Assembly: GCF_947507565.1 (NCBI RefSeq)
Contig: NC_089179.1
Coordinates: 926,681 to 990,680 of the forward strand
DNA from: Oscarella lobularis
Lineage: Eukaryota
Length of the DNA stretch: 64,000 nt
Direction of reading: 5' to 3'
The notes beneath the pieces were generated by a model. That model was not told where the DNA came from and did no database searches. It saw only the letters and a program-made list of their open reading frames with translations. Shown here one piece after another: positions 12,404 to 62,648 of the stretch. Within the stretch, counting starts at the first letter, position 1. Every line of letters begins with the position of its first letter. Both the position numbers and the translations under genes were made by a program.

Positions 12404-12685
12404 CGTGCTATCTCGCTAGCGCGCGTTAGTCAAAAAACTGTACTGAAATTGCGCTGAAATTCTGCAAAAATGAACTCAAACGACTTCAAAGACTCGACGT
12501 TAGCAGCAGGAGGAATCCCCAAGAGAGCCGGCGAACCGAAAAGCCGATTAGAAACATATCTACGACGACGTGCAATTGAACAATTCGCATTGCTCATTCG
12601 GCGAGACCTAACACTCGTCCAAAGTGTTGACAATTGACGCAGAAAACCCCCGAATCAAATCGAGACGAAGGCAAACTCCTTGCGC

Positions 12686-15600
12686 CATGCCCGCTCGTCC
12701 CGCAGACCCAGGAGACGTCGCAAACGCGCGAAAAGACAACGAATCGCAAAAACAGTCGATCGGCAACGGAATCGCCGCCGATTCAATGACGACGACGTCG
12801 ATCGGCGGCGTAGTCAACTTGTCGTGCCACGGCGCCAACGTCGGACTGACGCTCGATCGTCGAACGTTCAAAATCACGTCGATCGAGCCGTCGAGCGCGG
12901 CGGGAAAGAGCGATCTCGTTCACGTCGGCGACGTCGTCTTACGCGTCAACGGTCACTGCACGGCGGCGCTCGAATACGAACGCGTCGTCGATCTGCTCGC
13001 GAACGTCGCCGCCGGCAGAATCGATCTCAAAATTATGCGAAACGTGCCGAAGGCGGAGCCAGCGACGTCGCTCGAGTATAATATCCCGCCACTTTGGGTC
13101 GAGAGCGATCATCGGTGCGGTGGCCCTCTAGCGGAGAAGGTCGACCGATTTTTTTTCTGTTTTCTTAGTCACAATCACGGCGAGATGAACGGTCAGGCAC
13201 CGTCGGCGTCCGGAGGAGGCGGAGGCGGCGGGAGAATGCCTCGACGAGCGATGAGCTTGGCTAACGACGGGCGACCGGGAAGTCCGTTGGCGCGGCGGAG
13301 CTATGTTCAGTTGAAAAATTGGTCTACTGAGAAACGGATGACCGATACGCTTCACAGTCGAGTCAAATCGGTGAGTAGGTGGAGTTCTCGTTCTCGATGG
13401 CTTTTCTCTCTTCGAGGAAAGGAGGGCGAGGCAGGTGTCGCGAGAAGGCAGGCGCGCTTACATCGGTTCTAGTAGAGAGTCCGGTTGACTCTATAAATGG
13501 TCTTTATTTTTCTAAGGTCTAGCTCATGCATACGTATGTCGAACAAAGCCTGGTGGGGCTTTTCTAGGCACCGGTGGAGCATTCGTGCCCGGTTTTTGAC
13601 CCGTTCTTTTTGTAACTGGCTGATCCTCCGTTTTTCCTCCTCCGTGCCCTCTCCGTGCCTCTTTCGCGTATCGTGTTTCATCTGCCTTTTTCACCTCTCC
13701 AAACGAGATCGCTCGAGACTTTTTCGCACACGCCTCGCAATGTTGTGTCTCGTTCGCGGTTTCTGCAATAAATGCGCTCGTTCGATTGACTCCCTGACAT
13801 CGGTGGCGCGCTCTTGTTTGGGGCGTTCTTCAGTCAATAAAGCCGGAATTCAAGCGAACCAGTTGCGTTGGGTTCTAGACTTTCACAACGTCGCTACACG
13901 ATACACTAGGGGCGTAGACTTTCCTCAGGGAGCGCGTACGCATGTTTTCTTTTCAAGAATGCACACGTTTTGCAAGAATAGTTCACCAACAAGTCGTATA
14001 GCTCCGCGACTCGCGCACCTGCTCGCTTTCTTCCATGCGGTGGTGGCGTTTTTTATCTCAAGTCAAAATGCCGCCCACCGCGGAAATGGAGGGGGGAGGG
14101 CCGGCCCGTCGCGCGATCTCATCCCTCTTCCCTCCTGCAGGTTCACGATACGTGGTGCAATCCGAATCATTGCCAAGGATCGATCATGTATCCGCTCGGC
14201 GCCGAAGTGAAACGCTTGCCGGGCGAATCTCGTTCGAAGGATGACGTCATCGATCAGGCGGAGGCATTCCTGAGCGAATATTTTCAATCGCTAAAAAAGT
14301 AGATTATTTTTCGTTCTCACTTCCTTGCTATTTTTCGTAAATCGATATTCAGACGAAGCGACAGTCAGAGCACGAAGAAGAAATTGGAGGAAATGGAAGC
14401 GAAGCGAATGCGCGAAGTCGTCGCCGAAGTCGAATTGAAAGGCACGTACGAATTAGACGAAAAAGAATTGGTGTTCGGCGCCAAACTTGCGTGGAGAAAC
14501 TCGCCGCGATGCATCGGACGCATTCAGTGGAACAAGCTTCAGGTACCGGCCGCGCGAACGTGACTGGGAGGCGGGGCGGGGCGGGGCGACGACGACGTCG
14601 ATGTTTTTTAGGTATTCGACTGTCGACACATTTCGAGTGGCGAGGAAATGGAACAGGCGATACGTCATCACATCAAATTTGCAACGAATGGAGGAAACAT
14701 CAGGTAGGAGGAGTATGCAAATTGGCGTGTCTTCTCGCCCAATCCCCGTGGCGGCGGCGATGTTTTCTTCCCAAGGTCGGCTATCACCGTGTTTCCTCAG
14801 CGAACGAGCAAACGAGACGACTTCCGTATATGGAGTCCCCAATACTTCCGCTACGCCGGCTACAAAATGGAGGACGGCACGATATTGGGCGACCCGGCAA
14901 CGGTCGACTTCACCGAAGTGAGTGCGCAACGAACGTGTTCACTGAGCAAAAATGCGACGTGTTTTATATAGATAGTCATCGGTTTGGGATGGAAGCCGCC
15001 GGAGGAGAAGACCATGTTCGATTTGATGCCCATTGTCATTCAAGCGCCGAGAGAAAAACCTCGTCTCGTCGACGTATCCGATCTCATTCTCGAAGTCGAG
15101 GTCTGGCATCCGCAGTAAGTCCATTCGATAAGGGGAGGGGAAAAGAAAAAAAAGTTGTGAATTCTAGGTATCCGTTTATGAAAGATTTGGGCCTAAAATG
15201 GTACGGATTGCCCGCTGTTTCGAACATGATGTTCGACGTCGGCGGCCTCGAGTTTCCCGCCTCTCCATTCAACGGATGGTGAGTCCCACTCGCCGCAGAG
15301 AGTTTCATTGAGATTCACGTTCCTTCTCAAAGGTACATGGCCCCCGAGGTGGCGGCGCGCAACTTCGGCGACACGTATCGTTTCAACATGCTCGAACCGG
15401 TTGCCAAGGGCATGGGACTCGATACGAGTTCGCTGTCGACTTTGTGGAAAGACAAGGCGCTCGTCGAGCTCAACGTTGCCGTGCTGCACAGCTTTCAGGT
15501 GAGAGATCGGTCCGGACGGGAGGAAACCGTATACATCATTGAAATATTTCCTAGGAAGCTAAAGTGACGATTAATGATCACCATTCGGCGGCCGCTTCCT

Positions 15601-33573: not shown

Positions 33574-34075
33574 TTAGAAGAGCTAGACAGAGACGCCTTT
33601 TCACGAGGGGCGTGGATGGGGGATGGGAAAGGGAGCCCCGGCCATCTACGACGTCTTTTCTAGCTTGCACGAGGGTTTGGTGCAATGCTGCAGTGTGAAT
33701 GTGCGCCGGTGCATTACGAAAAAAACGATAAAAACGATCGTAAGCACCCGAGCAAACAACCCGGGCCACAACCGGTTCTCGCCTGATTTGGGGAGTCTCG
33801 AAAGAAGCTCTCTATCAGCCGGACTTACTGTGTACGGGCGAAGGACGTTCAAGCAAGAAAGAGACGAGCTCGTGTAAGTTTACGCCGTCACGACACCTCC
33901 AATGATTGGTTGCTTCCCTACTAATTTGATTGGATCGCGCACGTGGATTTTCGGCTTAGCTCAGTAGATCCCCTATTTTAGGAAACAGCCATATCGCTTA
34001 CTCATTGCTTCGCTCGTTGCACAACGAACGAGCAATTTCGGGGGAAAAAAGAGAGGCGGGGCTCCTTCCGAGGAA

Positions 34076-35442
34076 ATGGCTGGTATTGCTCCAACGTAAG
34101 GCGCTGCAACGCCTGATTGACGACTTTCTGTCTTCAGGCGAACGGCCTTCTCAATTGGTTCTAGTCGTCGATGTTAGTCCTGTGCACTGGGGAAGGCTAA
34201 ACGCCGCTGCGGAGGAGGTACGGAAAATGGAACTTGCTTTTCTTTTCGTCTCACAACCAACACTGTCAGTCACTGTCGTTTACTCGGTGCGTGGAGAATG
34301 TCTGCGTCTTTCTCAACGCTTTCATGATGATAAACGATGGGAACAAGATAGCTGTTCTTGCCTCTCATCCTCTTGAAAAGTTTGTGCAGTATGATCTTCC
34401 CAAAATACAGGAAAATTTCATTTTGCTCCTTAGCCGATTCGTCTATCCAACGTCAAATGTTCCAAGTGACGGCGTGAGATATGAACTCTTTGCTGCCCTC
34501 GATAAGGCAGTCGTCGACGGAATGAAAGCGATGGCACAAAAACTGACCTTACATGGTTACAATAGATAAAGACTTAAAAAAAATTATCAATAGAGTCTGT
34601 TTTAGAAAACGTTATCGCTGATGGGTCTCCTTCTTTGATGGCTGGCAGTTTGGCCAAGGCCCTTTGCTGTAAGAGAGACCACCAACACTTTTATCTATAT
34701 TAATTTTTTTTCATCTGCAGACATTAACAGGACTACTCAAGGTAGCCGGTTAGTAACTCTAGCGCCTGCTAATTTTGTATACAATAGCTGGGGGTCAACT
34801 TCAATCGAGAATTCTGGTATAGTTACATGTCCAGTGGATGGCAGTCTTATCAAAAAACGACTCTTTATTAGATAGTCAAAGTGTCACCTGACGCTCCGGC
34901 TCAATACATGGCCACAATGAATTGCATATTTGGAGCTCAGAAAAATGTACCTATGTACTACACTATTAAGTGATGAATTTTTGACTGGCATTTAGGGAAT
35001 ACCTATTGATGCTTGCATCATTGGTCCGGACTCTGGTTTTCTGCAACAGGTACTTATGAAAACATTTTTTCTCTATTTCTATTCTCTTTCCAGGCATCTG
35101 ACTTGACTGGTGGAATGTACCTTAGAGTTCCTGAACCGAAGGCGTTGCTACAGTATCTTATGGTATATTCAGCTTCGTCATATTTTTCCGTGCTCATGTC
35201 TTGGTATATTGCAGTGGGTGTTTCTTCCGGATGCTTCAATAAGGAATACATTGGTTTTTCCGTCTCGAGCACTTGTCGACTACAGAGCGGCCTGTTTTTG
35301 TCACAGAAAACTTGTAGAAGTTGGATTCGTCTGCTCCGTTTGTCTTTCAAGTAAGAGTAGTGGACATTTGGGATTGGGGGAAAGGCGAGTTTCTTTCTTG
35401 CAGTTTTTTGTCAATTTAATCCCGTCTGCCTGACCTGCAAGT
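34076..35442 (+). CDS. GTF2H3: General transcription factor IIH subunit 3 (p34 / Tfb4), multi-exon
   Basis: [16 protein letters not shown] (p34 LLVIVVDANPIWWGK); [35 protein letters not shown]; [23 protein letters not shown]; [45 protein letters not shown] followed by an intron; [13 protein letters not shown] (p34 CSVCLSIFCNFSPICTTCE). Confidence 0.8.
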
Positions 35443-35646: not shown

Positions 35647-37077
35647 TTGACATCCGTATTTATTTATACGGGAGCAACAGATAGAACATGCCACGGAAGT
35701 AGCCGTACACGTTCAACAGGTTTCATGGACGCTATCGAGAGCGAAGAAGAGGAGGAACGGCAGCCGCTCGTTCTCTCGACGGAGAAAGAGCAGTCTAGCA
35801 CTTGTCGAAAGAAAGCCAACTTCAAAAGAAGACGGCGTATCGACGTCTGTCTGGCGCTAATCGTGTCAGCGACGCTTGGTTTGGGAAGCGGAGTTTCGTA
35901 CGCACTCAGCTATCTTATACGACCCGTACAAAGGGCCTGTCCTGCATGGTCCCCTTCATCTACTGTCTACGGGTTCTCTGGTTCGATGGCTGTCGCGGTA
36001 ATATTCGGCGTCTTTGTGCCCAGTCTCTCGGCGAAGTTATCGGCGCGGACTGCTGTCGTTGCGATCACTTTGCTTTCTGGTCTTTCGTACGGTCTATCGG
36101 GACTCGGAACTCAGTTATGTCAGACAGCTGGCGTATCGCCTGTTATTACGGAGATTCTCTACGTCGTCGGATTGTCGGCTACTGGACTGCCTATTATCTG
36201 GGCTTACATCTTATGTTTTCAGCTTCTGGTTCAACTGATTCCGCACAGAGTGGGGCTGGCTGGGAGTACGTTTAGTGCAGGCATTACTGTTGGGGCGGAA
36301 ATCTTTGGCCAATTGATACTGGCGCTCATTAAGATTGACGGCATGACGACTGCATCTATTCAATTTATCGTTGGAATTATAGTCGTCCTGCTGTACACTG
36401 TATGCATATTTCTCACTCCTGATAAGAAAGTAAAGAGCGGTGCTGACAGCAAAAGCGACGTGCAAGGAGCTTCTTTACGAGAGGTCATGCCATTTTCTTT
36501 ACTTATCCGTCGTTCTGCATCTATTCTGACGTCTTTTTTTGTAACTGTAGCAGTGGCTCTAGCCATCGGCGTGGTAGCTCATCTTGCCTTGATTCTCGAT
36601 GCACTTTGGAATGCAGACGCTCCTCCGAGAGCAGCATTGGCTGGATTTGCATTCGCTTTTTATCTTGCCGGTAGATTGACTTGGACTGTAACGTCAGATT
36701 GTATTGGAATCAAAAGACTGTGTCTAATATCAGTGGCTCTGCAAGGCTTCATATTTGGATTTCTAGCTTGGCTCTCATGGAAACCTTCAACCGATGACTG
36801 GTCCAGATATTTGGGAGAAGTCATGATCTGTCTTTATTTGTTCATTTGCAGTGTCTGCAAATCGCACTGCATGAGCCTATTCTACGTTATGTTGGGAAAG
36901 GAGAATGAAAAGAACGCTTTGCGTTTGAGCAACATTGCTGGACTCGGAGCCATTGGCGGCCCCTTACTCATCGACGCCATGTACAACACGTTCAAGAGCT
37001 ACTTTCAATTCTACGTAATGTCAAGCTGTCTTTGTCTCGTTTCACTCATCTTTGTTTTCGCAAAGCCTTTGACCTGA
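35647..37077 (+). CDS. MFS-like 12-TM transporter, tandem copy 1 (intronless)
   Basis: Single 476-aa ORF. The start is probably ATG 35725 (MDAIESEEEEERQPLVL). ~12 hydrophobic helices. MFS motif-A-like AGRLTWTVTSDCIGIKR in the second half. C-terminus ..LIFVFAKPLT*. 85-90% identical at nt level to copy 2. Confidence 0.7.
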   Translation: MTSVFIYTGATDRTCHGSSRTRSTGFMDAIESEEEEERQPLVLSTEKEQSSTCRKKANFKRRRRIDVCLALIVSATLGLGSGVSYALSYLIRPVQRACPAWSPSSTVYGFSGSMAVAVIFGVFVPSLSAKLSARTAVVAITLLSGLSYGLSGLGTQLCQTAGVSPVITEILYVVGLSATGLPIIWAYILCFQLLVQLIPHRVGLAGSTFSAGITVGAEIFGQLILALIKIDGMTTASIQFIVGIIVVLLYTVCIFLTPDKKVKSGADSKSDVQGASLREVMPFSLLIRRSASILTSFFVTVAVALAIGVVAHLALILDALWNADAPPRAALAGFAFAFYLAGRLTWTVTSDCIGIKRLCLISVALQGFIFGFLAWLSWKPSTDDWSRYLGEVMICLYLFICSVCKSHCMSLFYVMLGKENEKNALRLSNIAGLGAIGGPLLIDAMYNTFKSYFQFYVMSSCLCLVSLIFVFAKPLT

Positions 37078-37254
37078 TTAAAGGCTCTTCACTCGGGGGA
37101 AGAAGAAGACTACATAGCCATTTGTGAACTCTAGCTTGTGCGCGCTTTCAGATAAGAGGGGCACAGCATTTCACTTGGGATCCTTTTTAATTAAATCACG
37201 CATTTCTCATTCTGAAAATGCAATTTATTAATCGAACTTGAATCTACTAAAAAC

Positions 37255-37395
37255 TCCATATGTTTCCATCCAATTTCAATCTCTATGACAAATTCGCTTC
37301 ACTTTATAATTTCTCTCTGTTCCATCGGCAAGCAATCGCTCGTCAGTCATGATAACAATGTCATCGACCGGCCTTAGCAGCTTATTTATTGATTC
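37255..37395 (-). pseudogene. Decayed duplicate of the last ~40 codons of the gene at 38986..39786, carried along by the tandem MFS duplication
   Basis: Minus-strand translation ..LLRPVDDIVIMTDERLLADGTERNYKVKRI.. compares with the intact gene end ..LLRPVDDIVLMSDERVLADGEKIGRLKPREIITWSEFVIEIETR*. The copy carries an internal deletion and frameshift. The flank sequence ttaaaggctcttcactcgggg..aatctactaaaaac..caatctctatgacaaattcgc is shared after both MFS copies. Confidence 0.5.
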
Positions 37396-37442
37396 GTTTA
37401 CCATACATGTAGATATCTATGATGCAACGGAAGTAGCCGTAT

Positions 37443-38795
37443 GTGTACATGCACGGGAACAAAGGAGAGGAAGAACGGCAGCCGCTCGTTCTTTCGACGG
37501 AGAAAGAGCAGTCTAGCACTTGTCGAAAGAAGGCCCCCTTCAAAAGAAGACGACGTCTCGACGTCTGTCTAAGAATGATCGCGTCAGCGACGCTTGGTTT
37601 GGGAAGCGGGGTTTGTTTCGCATTCAGCTATCTTATTCGACCCGTACAAATGGCTTGTCCTGCATGGTCGTCTTCGTCTACCGTCTACGGGTTCTCTGGT
37701 GCGATGGCTGTATCGGCAATATTCGGCCTCTTTGTGCCCAGTCTAACGGCCAAGTTATCGGCACGAACTGTCGTTGTTGCTGTTACTTTGACTTTTGGTC
37801 TTTCGTTCGGCCTATCGGGACTCGGAACTCAGTTATGTCAGACAGCCGGATCACCTGTCATTACAGAAATTCTCTACGTCGTCGGATTGTCTACTGTTGG
37901 ATTACCGTCTTTCTGGGCGTTTCTCTTTAGTTTTCAGCTTCTGGTTGAAGTGATTCCGCGCAGAGTGGGACTGGCTGGGGGTACGTTCGCTACAGGTTAT
38001 ACCGCTGGCGCGCAAGTCTTCAGCCAATTGATACTGGCGCTCACTAAGATTGACGGCATGACGGCTGGATCTGTTCAATTTGTTATTGGAATTATCGTCG
38101 TTCTGCTGTGCACTTTATCCATATTTTTCGTTCCTGATAAGAAAGTAGAGAGCGGTGCTGAGAGCAAAAGCAGCGTGGAAGCGGCTCCTTTACAAAAGGC
38201 TATGCCATTGCCTTTACTTCTCCGACGTTGTTCATCTATTCTGACGTCTTTTTTTTTAACTATAGCATTGGCTCTATCCTGCGGCGTGGTAGCTCATCTT
38301 GCCTTGATTCTCGATGCACTTTGGAATACAGACACTCCTCCGAGAGCAGCATTGACCGGATTTGCATTCGCTTTTTATCTTGCCGGCAGATTGACTTGGA
38401 CGGTAGCGTCAGATTGCATTGGCATCAAAAGAATCTGTCTAATATCAGTGGCTCTGCAAGGCTGCACATTTGGATTTCTAGCTTGGCTCTCATGGAAGCC
38501 GCCAGTCGATGACTGGTCCGGATATTTGGGAGAAATTCTGATCTTCTTTTATTTGTTCATTTGTAGTGTCTGTAAATCAAACAGCTTGAGCATATTCTAC
38601 GTTATGCTGGGAAAGGAGAATGAAAAGAACGCTTTACGTTTGAGCAGCATTGCCGGAGGAATTGGATGCTTCGTCGGTCCCCTATTCATCGACGCCATGT
38701 ACAACGCATTCAAGAGCTACTTTCCATTCTACGTAACGTCAAGCTGCCTTTGTCTCGTTTCACTCATCTTTGTTTTCGCAAAGCCTTTGACCTAA
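37443..38795 (+). CDS. MFS-like 12-TM transporter, tandem copy 2 (intronless)
   Basis: Single 450-aa ORF collinear with copy 1 (..EEERQPLVLSTEKEQSSTCRKKA.., ..AGRLTWTVASDCIGIKR.., ..LIFVFAKPLT*). Duplication unit ~1.74 kb (about 35690-37430 and 37428-39130). Confidence 0.7.
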   Translation: MYMHGNKGEEERQPLVLSTEKEQSSTCRKKAPFKRRRRLDVCLRMIASATLGLGSGVCFAFSYLIRPVQMACPAWSSSSTVYGFSGAMAVSAIFGLFVPSLTAKLSARTVVVAVTLTFGLSFGLSGLGTQLCQTAGSPVITEILYVVGLSTVGLPSFWAFLFSFQLLVEVIPRRVGLAGGTFATGYTAGAQVFSQLILALTKIDGMTAGSVQFVIGIIVVLLCTLSIFFVPDKKVESGAESKSSVEAAPLQKAMPLPLLLRRCSSILTSFFLTIALALSCGVVAHLALILDALWNTDTPPRAALTGFAFAFYLAGRLTWTVASDCIGIKRICLISVALQGCTFGFLAWLSWKPPVDDWSGYLGEILIFFYLFICSVCKSNSLSIFYVMLGKENEKNALRLSSIAGGIGCFVGPLFIDAMYNAFKSYFPFYVTSSCLCLVSLIFVFAKPLT

Positions 38796-38985
38796 TTAAA
38801 GGCTCTTCACTCGGGGAAGAAAGAAGACTGCATAGCAATCGGTGAACTCTAGCTTTCAGGTAAGAGGGGTACAGCACTTCACTCGGATCCTTTTTAATTA
38901 AATCACACATTTCTAATTCTAAAAATGCAATCTATTAATAATCAAACCTGAATCTACTAAAAACCCCCATGGTACATAAATGCTT

Positions 38986-39786
38986 CTATCTAGTTTCAAT
39001 CTCTATGACAAATTCGCTCCACGTTATAATTTCTCTCGGTTTCAGTCGACCGATTTTCTCCCCATCGGCAAGCACTCGCTCGTCACTCATGAGAACGATG
39101 TCATCGACCGGCCTCAGGAGCTTCTCGGAAACCCGTTCTCGTATCTTCCGAACCAGATCCGAATCGCGGACGTCCAATTGAAATGTGTCTTCTCTGCTCG
39201 AATCGTCTGACAATTGGATTTGATCTGACGGAACTCGGACGTCGCAGACAATTCCCTGGTATCTTTTGGGCCATACGTAACCTTTCCCTTGAGGCCGATA
39301 GGGTAGGGTCTGTAAACCGTTGTCGTGGTGATCAAATCCGAGCCCCTTTCCGTAGACGTAGAAGAGTTTCTTGTTTCGGTCCTTTTTCGGTCCCTTGAAG
39401 ACGTAGTGTAGCTTGTAGTCGTCTTCCGGCTGCACGCGAGTGAAGTCGTTTAGTTTCGCGTGATAAAAGTAGCCGGTTTTGACGTTTGGATTGTGATTGC
39501 CCGGCTGCCGATAACGAATCGTGCCGTGTGAGAGATTGAGGAGAGCGGGCGAGTCGACGGCATTCTCGTCGACGCCAGGCGTCGAGACTCTGCGCGACGA
39601 CGAGGAGTCGGGCTTGTTTGCCGAAAGGGAAGTCGCTGTTCCCATAGAGAGAGATCTGGCATTGCGCCTGCGCGAGTGTACATTCTCTTCTCCCAGCGCC
39701 CCTACAGTTTGAAGCAAGTTACCGACCAGCTGGCAAGCGGCTTTGCAGAATGCGTCTACGGAACAGCTAGCAGACCTCGTGGCCAC
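38986..39786 (-). CDS. Hypothetical protein with predicted C-terminal ubiquitin-like (beta-grasp) region, intronless
   Basis: Single 266-aa ORF; ..KLFYVYGKGLGFDHHDNGLQTLPYRPQGKGYVWPKRYQG..; C-terminus TFQLDVRDSDLVRKIRERVSEKLLRPVDDIVLMSDERVLADGEKIGRLKPREIITWSEFVIEIE. The family assignment is tentative. Confidence 0.45.
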   Translation of the reverse strand: MATRSASCSVDAFCKAACQLVGNLLQTVGALGEENVHSRRRNARSLSMGTATSLSANKPDSSSSRRVSTPGVDENAVDSPALLNLSHGTIRYRQPGNHNPNVKTGYFYHAKLNDFTRVQPEDDYKLHYVFKGPKKDRNKKLFYVYGKGLGFDHHDNGLQTLPYRPQGKGYVWPKRYQGIVCDVRVPSDQIQLSDDSSREDTFQLDVRDSDLVRKIRERVSEKLLRPVDDIVLMSDERVLADGEKIGRLKPREIITWSEFVIEIETR

Positions 39787-60758: not shown

Positions 60759-62648
60759 ATGAGTTCGCTGCTGGTGGCGATTCTTGCCGCTCTCTGTTGG
60801 AATGGCCGCGCTGACGAGTTAGAGAAACCCACGTTGCAAGTCTTTTTGCAGTCCAATGGCATCGCTGAAATCCGGCGCATCGTCAATCCAATTCTCGTCA
60901 AAACCGTCACCTCTACGCTCATTCCCGACCAGTCCTTCGGTTTCGCCGGCATCGACATCGACATATCCGAGATAAAATTGACCGAATTTACGCTCGGCGA
61001 ACAAGAAGTGCTCAATGTTCCTCCCAGCGCCGTCTACATCGTTTCTTCGAACATGACGGCGCACGCTACGATGGCGTGGCGGTACAAAGACGGCGCAATA
61101 GACATCAGCGGTAACGCGACCGATCTGATGTCTGACATGTCGCTCGGAATCGTTCTCGACATCACCTCTCTTGAACATCGGCTCATTCTCGACATAATAG
61201 AATGCACCGTCAAGATTGGCACTTTGAAAATTCAATTGTCGGGAACGAGCAGTTTTTATGAAAAACTCGTCGAACTTCTCAACAGCCCCATCACCAATCT
61301 CTTTGAATCTCAAATTGGATCCGAGATCAAGACCCTCGCTAATCAGATAATTGCAAAGTATTTGCCCGATGTGCCACTTCAAGTCAACGTCAGCGTTGAA
61401 TCGGCTACTGTGCACGCCTACTTTGGCCTCGTTTCATTTGGGAACGTGCACGGGTTGTACGGCAAGAAATATGGCAACAACCACTTTTCCGGCAGCGGAT
61501 CGTCCTATCAGACAGCGTCACTCAGTTTCGGTGTAAGCGCATACGACAGCATCAGCATAACAGGTTATTTCTCGCCCCAAAACACGGGCAATTACAGCAT
61601 CCGAATGCACTACAAACAGCGAAGCAGAGTGACGTTTGTCGGCAAGTCCGAAGGCGGCTTGGAGATGCACAATCCAGGCATGTGCTGGCCGGAATATCAT
61701 ACCGACTACACCGAAGCGGTGCCGTTGCTCGCTCACGCCTTCTATCCCCTTCAACTGGAGTACCAGTCCGGCTGCGGCGGCGGTCACGTCGAATTGACCG
61801 CCTGCTTCGAATCGACGAACAACTGCACTGCCATCGATTCACTGAGTCTGTACGCCGAGCCGACTTCGCTCGGCATTCCCGTCGTCGTGCATTCGGACGC
61901 GATAGTCGCTTCGTCGGCTTTCAACGTCTTCTACCAAACGCAAACGATACCGTCGAACAACTCCGTTCACTCTCTACCGAATACCCTGCCGTCGAGCTTT
62001 GATTTGGCCTCCGATATGATCGCCGTCTACGTGGACGAATACGTATTCAATTCTGCTCTCACAGCCTTCTCCGAGGCCGGTCTCTTTACCGTCCTCGTCA
62101 ATAACAGTGTCATTCCGCCGTCGCTGAAAAGCTTCTTCCAGTTCAATACGACCTTTTTCAAGTCCTATGTTCCCTCGCTCTATGAAAAGTATCCCAACAT
62201 GGCCATGACAATTGACGTAGGGCCGTTCGTTCATCCGACACTCGTCGTCTTGCCCAGTCCCGTTGGTCTCCTTGGCAGTTTTTCGTTCGTTCTCGACGTG
62301 TACGTGGCGGAGGAACAGAAGCTGATACCGGCATTTGGTTTGATAGCGAATCTTACGGTTTCGGGGATGGCCAAGATGAACGGTAGCAATATAACGGCGA
62401 ACGTTGAAATGAAAGGGTTCAACGTCACTCTGAGCTGGGCGAAGATTGACGTGAATCAAACTAGCGTGGACAATTTGAAATCGTTTATGGGTTCCATGAT
62501 CAATTTGGTCGCCCTGCCAGCAATCAATTTCAAATTGAATCAGGGTATTCCTATTCCTGCGTTTGACGGATTAACGATTGTCAATCCTCGATTCACCTAC
62601 TATAACGGATACATCGGCGTTACTGCCGCTTTCAAGATAGAAATCTAG
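60759..62648 (+). CDS. Secreted BPI/LBP/CETP-fold lipid-binding protein carrying a PA14/GLEYA-like insertion between the two BPI barrels; intronless
   Basis: Single 629-aa ORF. Signal peptide MSSLLVAILAALCWNGRA. N-terminal barrel ..TLKIQLSGTSSFYEKLVELLNSPITNLFESQIGSEIKTLANQ..LQVNVSVESATVHAYFGLV.. C-terminal barrel ..KSYVPSLYEKYPNMAMTIDVGPFVHPTLVV.. (BPI [28 protein letters not shown]) and ..LVALPAINFKLNQGIPIPAFDGLTIVNPRFTYYNGYIGVTAAFKI (BPI [43 protein letters not shown]). Central segment YFSPQNTGNYSIRMHYKQRSRVTFVGKSEGGLEMHN..AHAFYPLQLEYQSGCGGGHVELTA is PA14-like. aataaa at 62712. Confidence 0.7.
   Translation: MSSLLVAILAALCWNGRADELEKPTLQVFLQSNGIAEIRRIVNPILVKTVTSTLIPDQSFGFAGIDIDISEIKLTEFTLGEQEVLNVPPSAVYIVSSNMTAHATMAWRYKDGAIDISGNATDLMSDMSLGIVLDITSLEHRLILDIIECTVKIGTLKIQLSGTSSFYEKLVELLNSPITNLFESQIGSEIKTLANQIIAKYLPDVPLQVNVSVESATVHAYFGLVSFGNVHGLYGKKYGNNHFSGSGSSYQTASLSFGVSAYDSISITGYFSPQNTGNYSIRMHYKQRSRVTFVGKSEGGLEMHNPGMCWPEYHTDYTEAVPLLAHAFYPLQLEYQSGCGGGHVELTACFESTNNCTAIDSLSLYAEPTSLGIPVVVHSDAIVASSAFNVFYQTQTIPSNNSVHSLPNTLPSSFDLASDMIAVYVDEYVFNSALTAFSEAGLFTVLVNNSVIPPSLKSFFQFNTTFFKSYVPSLYEKYPNMAMTIDVGPFVHPTLVVLPSPVGLLGSFSFVLDVYVAEEQKLIPAFGLIANLTVSGMAKMNGSNITANVEMKGFNVTLSWAKIDVNQTSVDNLKSFMGSMINLVALPAINFKLNQGIPIPAFDGLTIVNPRFTYYNGYIGVTAAFKIEI

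Follow-up and report, generated by a model that had tools for sequence, protein, structure and literature searches.

Two closely related transporter genes stand in tandem in the genome of the homoscleromorph sponge Oscarella lobularis, within a window of 64,000 nucleotides (the whole stretch analysed here; contig NC_089179.1, positions 926,681 to 990,680, of RefSeq assembly GCF_947507565.1), to which all coordinates below refer. The RefSeq genome of this species appears as ooOscLobu1.1 in the reference list of PMC13284214. A scan of the window for open reading frames (ORFs) returned two on the plus strand, at 35647..37077 and 37443..38795, followed by a convergent one on the minus strand at 38986..39786. 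An earlier note on this DNA had given the two transporters as 476 and 450 residues long; the ORFs are present where it placed them, but these lengths stem from bacterial-code TTG/GTG starts, and the ATG-initiated coding sequences (CDSs) encode 450 and 448 residues. Copy 1 (35725..37077, plus strand), supported by its ORF and by colinear tblastn alignments, and copy 2 (37449..38795, plus strand), supported by its ORF, an AlphaFold2 (AF2) model and Foldseek, are both single-exon CDSs, and their products are 100% identical to XP_065830393.1 (P0140) and XP_065830395.1 (P0138), respectively, each named 'uncharacterized protein' in RefSeq. The two proteins share 345 of 446 residues (77%).

The third gene, which ends in a putative ubiquitin-like (UBL) tail, runs towards copy 2. 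Its homologues in the annelid Owenia fusiformis and the mollusc Plakobranchus ocellatus begin at a Met-Gly aligned with residue 48 of the bacterial-code ORF that extends to 39786, and its CDS is therefore taken as a single exon at 39645..38986 (minus strand; 219 residues, ATG at 39645, MGTATS...). All three CDSs are uninterrupted and each is a single ORF in an intron-rich surrounding region, as the earlier note had observed; the genes for Tfb4/GTF2H3, the major vault protein (MVP), moonraker, NOS, a kinase and PHAF1 in the window are split over many short ORFs.

The two transporter genes lie in the units of a head-to-tail direct repeat with a period of 1,734 bp, unit A at 35688..37383 and unit B at 37422..39123. 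In a local alignment 1457 of 1654 aligned nucleotides are identical, and this 88% falls within the 85-90% put forward earlier for the duplicated transporter; similarity over 1.65 kb at this level, colinear and in tandem, rules out chance as its cause. Unit A comprises a 37-nt leader, the CDS and 306 nt of 3' flank, while unit B continues for 328 nt beyond the stop codon of copy 2 and has its right end inside the intact neighbour gene. The repeat does extend past the stop codons, although the ~350 bp claimed for this extension was slightly too high. On the other side, the homology reaches back no further than 37 nt from the ATG of copy 1. The 38-nt junction between the units (37384..37421) is only weakly similar to the 38 nt that precede unit A (best local score 10, a value that 1.7% of random genomic 48-mers and 5.8% of shuffles attain) and may represent filler sequence or else a left edge of unit B that has decayed. 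Both units open with a 15-nt mini-ORF, ATG CCA/CAA CGG AAG TAG (M-P/Q-R-K-stop; 35688-35702 and 37422-37436), which sits at the left edge of detectable homology and, with 18 of 19 nt identical, is the best-conserved part of the short leader; it could be an upstream ORF or a core promoter or 5' untranslated region (UTR) element.

A dead fragment of the neighbour gene closes the 3' flank of unit A. Translation and alignment show that 37258..37383 (minus strand), the final 126 nt of the unit, duplicates the last 46 codons of the UBL-tail gene together with 8 nt of its 3' UTR; it aligns to 38978-39123 with 89% identity and one 20-nt gap. Its decay is visible in this frameshifting 20-nt deletion and in a TGG>TGA change that converts a tryptophan codon into a stop. 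The frameshifted pseudo-copy of the neighbour's 3' end described in the earlier note is thus real, and the right breakpoint of the duplication does fall within the 3' coding end of that gene. The homology spans the 190-bp intergenic spacer between the transporter CDS and the neighbour and, on the other strand, 138 nt of the neighbour's CDS; there is a single junction, as is characteristic of a tandem segmental duplication at the DNA level. As intergenic DNA and antisense CDS of the neighbour were copied along with the transporter gene, the duplication was DNA-based. The dead fragment also provides an internal neutral yardstick: it differs from the end of the live gene by a divergence K of 0.12, which would represent about one neutral branch and would imply a neutral pairwise distance of ~0.2-0.24, consistent with the synonymous divergence (dS) between the transporters.

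These features suggest the following course of events. A chromosomal piece of ~1.73 kb, made up of a single-exon major facilitator superfamily (MFS) gene, the 190-bp spacer and the neighbour's last 46 codons, would have been duplicated in tandem, with the left breakpoint 37 nt (possibly ~75 nt) 5' of the transporter ATG and the right breakpoint inside the neighbour's CDS. The resulting order is copy 1, truncated neighbour fragment, copy 2 and intact neighbour. The truncated fragment is without function and decaying, while both transporter copies have stayed open and under constraint as they drifted to 77% protein identity and a dS of about 0.2-0.25. The earlier note had placed copy 2 at the ancestral position; in a tandem duplication, however, the old upstream flank stays with the left copy and the old downstream flank with the right one, so that neither occupies 'the ancestral position'. 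With a repeat that takes in no more than 37 nt 5' of the ATG, the copy without the ancestral upstream region is copy 2, and the position of the breakpoint means that this downstream copy had to acquire a new promoter. Unequal crossing-over, also proposed earlier, finds no mediating homology at either breakpoint: no repeat or extended homology was seen at the two breakpoints beyond the marginal similarity of the junction to the region upstream of unit A. Therefore, a non-homologous duplication of the replication or end-joining type fits at least as well. Upstream of the pair lies the multi-exon Tfb4/GTF2H3 gene (34005-35433, plus strand), whose last matching ORF stops ~290 nt 5' of the ATG of copy 1, so near that the ancestral promoter space is very small; exons of MVP lie further upstream on the minus strand, at 31.2-33.8 kb.

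Comparison of the two copies gives a nonsynonymous divergence (dN) of 0.12-0.13 and a dS of 0.20-0.25, that is, a dN/dS ratio (omega) of 0.5-0.7. The net length differences within the CDS are all in frame, and the indels of the 3' flank measure 1, 10 and 20 nt. In neutral simulations, an ORF of such a sequence survives 92 substitutions stop-free in 4% of trials. When the closest paralogue (P0031, ~40% identical) is used as the outgroup, 17 changes are unique to copy 1 and 24 to copy 2 (p=0.27), so that the rate asymmetry between the copies is not significant; the two copies depart from family-conserved residues at 3 and 4 sites, and differences at first and third codon positions number 72 and 71. 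On the basis of the open ORFs, the in-frame indels, the omega values and the symmetric rates, both copies are under relaxed but real purifying selection. In a sliding-window analysis, codons ~201-275 of copy 1 (~36325-36549), covering transmembrane helix (TM) 6 and the central cytoplasmic loop, have a nominal dN/dS of 1.7 (dN 0.195, dS 0.115), against 0.3-0.4 elsewhere.

The description of the proteins as MFS-like with 12 TM helices is borne out by structure prediction. The AF2 model of copy 2, computed with the family alignment, reaches a predicted local distance difference test (pLDDT) value of 88.7 and a predicted TM-score (pTM) of 0.86 and contains 12 long TM helices; Foldseek finds 442 matches to it in the PDB at E<=1e-3, and the 50 that were listed are all MFS carriers, with TM-scores of up to 0.80. 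At the top stand SfMCT (6zgs) and OxlT (8hpk), with TM-scores of 0.71-0.80. A search of the PDB with the single sequence of copy 2 gave no match at E<=1. A first family alignment (A1) holds one probably bacterial row (P0026), which pulled mostly bacterial MFS proteins into the profile search; a sponge-only alignment (A3) was therefore built, and the PDB and NCBIfam comparisons were repeated with it. The sponge-only profile retrieves SfMCT over its full length (E 3.8e-20, 75 bits), followed by OxlT (4e-13, 52 bits) and the animal SLC16 proteins MCT8 (1e-6, 30 bits) and MCT10 (22 bits). Of the NCBIfam families, SfMCT alone is matched by each of the 19 members of the alignment; TIGR00890 is matched by 7 of the 19 (best E 7e-17) and not by the window pair at E<=1e-3. 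Fold and family placement thus identify the two proteins as 12-TM carriers of the branch that includes SfMCT, the oxalate:formate antiporters (OFA) and SLC16.

SfMCT, the L-lactate/H+ symporter of Syntrophobacter fumaroxidans (6G9X/6HCL) and a bacterial SLC16 homologue, is the best profile match and the best structural match (TM-score 0.71-0.78, same 12-TM MFS fold), and it offers a guide to function. Its carboxylate-binding arginine in TM8, R280, is positioned by N276, and Y119 lies in TM4; the substitutions R280A, N276A and Y119F abolish lactate transport (PMC6573034). In the profile alignment, at ~16% identity, the R280 position is an arginine in both copies and in 16 of 19 family members, the H250 position is a histidine in both copies, and the Y119 position is a tyrosine in copy 1 and a phenylalanine in copy 2. 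Residues mapped past about position 300 were not used, as this part of the mapping is unreliable (mafft --keeplength drops insertions). From the R280-aligned arginine and the kinship with SfMCT and OxlT, we infer both the substrate class and the coupling mode: the two proteins would be alternating-access carriers for a small organic carboxylate, with the TM8 arginine holding the carboxylate group. The Tyr/Phe difference at the Y119 position may hint at diverging substrate preferences of the two copies.

Apart from the low identity and the substitutions at the N276 position and, in copy 2, at the Y119 position, SfMCT differs from the window pair in its bacterial host and in lacking both the near-invariant cysteine pair and the YLIxPVxxACPxWSxS motif of the sponge family. 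The motifs of this family are YLIxPVxxACPxWSxSxTVYG, GR...SDxIG and the two near-invariant cysteines (C70 and C130 of copy 2). According to alignments A1 and A3, these cysteines (window ~37656 and ~37836) fall in the predicted outward TM1-TM2 and TM3-TM4 loops; the pair is kept across the sponge family and in the rhizarian Lapot gusevi and is absent from SfMCT and from the bacterial-like P0026. An extracellular disulfide between C70 and C130 is conceivable and might be a hallmark of the eukaryotic family. OxlT, of the oxalate:formate antiporter family (TC 2.A.1.11; TIGR00890), is the second-best match both by profile and by fold (TM-score 0.71-0.80), and its arginine aligns with the TM8 arginine of the window family, whereas the window pair stays above E 1e-3 against TIGR00890. 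Animal SLC16 proteins (MCT1, MCT8, MCT10) belong to the same MFS branch and have the same TM8 arginine, but their distance from the window pair is clearly greater than that of SfMCT and OxlT (Foldseek TM-score 0.62-0.68), and the long TM6-TM7 loop of the SLC16 type is lacking in the window pair, which is not orthologous to any bilaterian SLC16 gene.

The close relatives of the pair that carry a name are found in sponges. A word-indexed homologue search with a single protein returned the window pair alone, and an exhaustive phmmer search of 1.84 billion representative proteins found 29 relatives at E<=1e-3; those with an organism name come from O. lobularis, O. pearsei and Corticium candelabrum, with L. 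gusevi as the one exception. The family comprises at least 10 paralogues in O. lobularis and is otherwise represented in a rhizarian protist and a few metagenome contigs. None of the JGI metagenome contigs with family members could be confirmed as a locus (A3 being too divergent, and A4 and P0013 matching patterns). In the searched databases the pair has no relative above ~41% identity, and the family paralogues are mutually only 23-41% identical. The paralogues of O. lobularis and Corticium (for instance XP_065845253.1, 'L-lactate transporter-like', XP_065829966.1, 'YhjX-like', and XP_062501756.1) share the family signature, a length of ~430-480 residues and uninterrupted CDSs, and differ from the window pair in being 23-31% identical to it. 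A hidden Markov model built from the sponge sequences alone scores the L. gusevi protein (P0022, outside the profile) at 213 bits and another sequence at 121, against at most 73 for bacterial MFS proteins including SfMCT. On the question, raised in the earlier note, of whether the closest relatives are animal or microbial, the named close ones are homoscleromorph sponges, and the nearest relative outside the sponges by profile score is a rhizarian protist and not a bacterium, contrary to what a bacterium-to-animal transfer would predict.

The uninterrupted reading frames, too, are a feature of the whole family. In tblastn comparisons, every member matches each copy colinearly over a single unbroken ORF. 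For at least five O. lobularis paralogues (XP_065830393, XP_065830395, XP_065841092, XP_065846568 and XP_065829966), the RefSeq protein has the same sequence or length as an ORF called in prokaryotic style on contigs of the European Nucleotide Archive (ENA), and full-length ENA ORFs also cluster with C. candelabrum proteins. Because the paralogues are uninterrupted and cluster with Corticium, the intronless CDS is a family-wide state older than the Oscarella-Corticium split, and not the mark of a recent event at this locus. The run of three consecutive intronless genes, considered unusual in the earlier note, is unremarkable because two of the three are copies of each other; moreover, a BPI/LBP gene in the same window is also a single ORF, and monoexonic transcripts make up 31.9% of the canonical set in another sponge (PMC13284214).

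The anatomy of the duplication, the fold, the family placement and the selective constraint together make it very probable that the locus results from an old, local tandem duplication of DNA that left a decaying fragment of the neighbour and two retained, constrained 12-TM carriers of carboxylate type, both presumably expressed. Several observations weigh against parts of this reading. The noncoding flank has a K of 0.095-0.12, below dS, which we put down to constraint on the UTR and to the fragment being compared with a gene that is still functional along its own branch; the flank may also have undergone gene conversion. The match to Pfam MFS_1 (PF07690) amounts to 25.9 and 24.4 bits for the two copies, under the gathering cut-off of 33.4, and as it is significant by E-value (6e-6) but sub-threshold, the family is divergent. 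Likewise, the NCBIfam SfMCT model (NF049980) scores 53 and 48 bits (E 2e-14), far below its equivalog cut-off of 320, so that the window proteins are relatives and not equivalogs of the SfMCT-type L-lactate transporter. The substrate assignment rests on ~16% identity to SfMCT, and the position of N276 is occupied by tyrosine, not asparagine, in both copies. Finally, omega values of 0.5-0.7 are high for a transporter gene, the old upstream DNA did not pass to copy 2, and one of the copies may be in the course of being lost. This last thought can be taken further, to one copy being a young pseudogene that is no longer transcribed but is still free of disabling mutations; copy 2 would be the likeliest candidate because of the lost upstream region. 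The left breakpoint 37 nt from the ATG, the high omega with a central stretch above 1 and the equal number of differences at first and third codon positions are all in keeping with such a fate, yet both ORFs are intact after ~184 substitutions (with a chance of 0.04 under neutrality for one copy alone), the indels of the CDS are in frame while those of the flank are not, departures from family-conserved residues are equally few in the two copies and their rates symmetric, both ORFs are kept in all haplotigs and RefSeq models both genes as protein-coding. We therefore consider a silent copy unlikely. An assembly artefact, in the form of a mis-joined haplotype pair or an expanded repeat, which the earlier note had named as a possible undoing of its reading, is far more improbable still and can practically be dismissed. 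Its sole attraction is that alternate haplotigs exist for the region. In the independent ENA assembly ERZ18545485, however, all four contigs that cover the locus (two primary and two alternate haplotigs, giving three distinct haplotype-level sequences) hold copy 1, the fragment, copy 2 and the neighbour in the same order and with the same junction; they are 100%, 99.7%, 99.7% and 98.7% identical to the window, the first figure coming from a 3.8-Mb contig over the 3.8 kb compared. The copies diverge by 12% in DNA and 23% in protein, against 0.3-1.3% between haplotigs.

The origin of the ancestral single gene, or of the family, is a separate question, and here the earlier note favoured retro-insertion or horizontal acquisition followed by local duplication. 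Its argument can be strengthened to some extent: all the family CDSs examined are uninterrupted, the profile scores for bacterial SfMCT and OxlT (75 and 52 bits) exceed those for animal MCT8 and MCT10 (30 and 22 bits), and only 29 relatives turn up in 1.84 billion proteins, the named animals among them being all homoscleromorph sponges. Nevertheless, an origin by transfer from a bacterium, such as a symbiont, or by retroposition appears improbable. The best bacterial score, at most 73 bits, compares poorly with the 213 bits of the L. gusevi protein, which shares the two cysteines that SfMCT lacks, so that a direct bacterium-to-sponge transfer, as judged from such scores, is not supported. With paralogues only 23-41% identical, any transfer would predate the Oscarella-Corticium split and could not be read from this locus. 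As regards retroposition, the duplication copied intergenic DNA and antisense CDS of the neighbour, the homology does not stop at a transcript end as that of a retrogene would, no poly(A) at the unit end and no target-site duplication were seen at the duplicated unit, and no intron-bearing parent was found among the family paralogues, which are uninterrupted ORFs; single-exon genes are, besides, common in sponges. For the pair itself, the proposal of retro-insertion or horizontal acquisition thus gives way to a DNA-based duplication within an intronless sponge family. A bolder variant, which we offer as a long shot, would make the pair the youngest expansion of an intronless SfMCT/OFA-like family with a cysteine pair that entered the homoscleromorph stem by ancient lateral transfer from a microbe or protist and was amplified for the exchange of organic acids (lactate, pyruvate, oxalate) with symbionts or the environment. 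A literature search on this transporter family or on horizontal gene transfer in Oscarella returned nothing relevant.

As a DNA-level tandem duplication, the locus is a real but ordinary, lineage-specific event affecting genes that were already annotated. It is a textbook case with a datable scar, useful in teaching and annotation and unsurprising in itself, since local duplication is an ordinary route of gene-family growth, and it opens no long-standing question. The mildly novel part is the small, uncharacterised family, which among animals is found, as far as members are named, only in homoscleromorph sponges. If this family handles lactate-like metabolites, it could bear on the exchange of metabolites between host and symbionts in these sponges.

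The convergent neighbour gene can be characterized to a lesser degree. Its C-terminus resembles Pfam ubiquitin at E 0.013 (15.7 bits, below the cut-off of 25.4) and PDB UBL4A weakly, at E 0.16, and the mollusc homologue is named 'Ubiquitin-like domain-containing'; the C-terminal part may thus be weakly ubiquitin-like. An AF2 model from 4 sequences has an overall pLDDT of 39, too low to confirm a beta-grasp fold, with values of 66-81 only at residues ~200-250. Met-Gly stands at the N-terminus of the neighbour protein (window 39645-39640, minus strand) and of both its annelid and its mollusc homologue, which suggests possible N-myristoylation. Two ATGs lie out of frame upstream of its start, at 39683 and 39662.

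Some further observations concern the family and the region. The 98.7% haplotype (ptg000374l) is set apart from the window by a polymorphic 33-nt indel between the two copies, at 37121-37153 in the spacer (vs L001 ~9702), a site that also carries a 10-nt indel between units A and B. On the 3.8-Mb contig ptg000012l, at least one other full-length family member (P0016, 483 residues; L005 10001-11452) lies at ~0.45 Mb and adjoins a fibrinogen-C gene. The same contig holds short ORF fragments of other paralogues (P0023, P0027, P0122, P0123 and P0125), including XP_065830436, 'L-lactate transporter-like'; part of them may represent split genes or pseudogenes. An Rfam scan of the whole window gave no match. 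The BPI/LBP gene mentioned above (60759-62648, plus strand) is a 629-residue, ATG-initiated single ORF with N- and C-terminal LBP/BPI/CETP domains and is apparently intronless. Lastly, an ORF with a PDZ domain (12624-13472, plus strand) lies just 5' of, and on the same strand as, the ORF of the NOS oxygenase domain (14491-15282, plus strand), and the two may belong to a PDZ-containing, nNOS-like NOS gene in a sponge.

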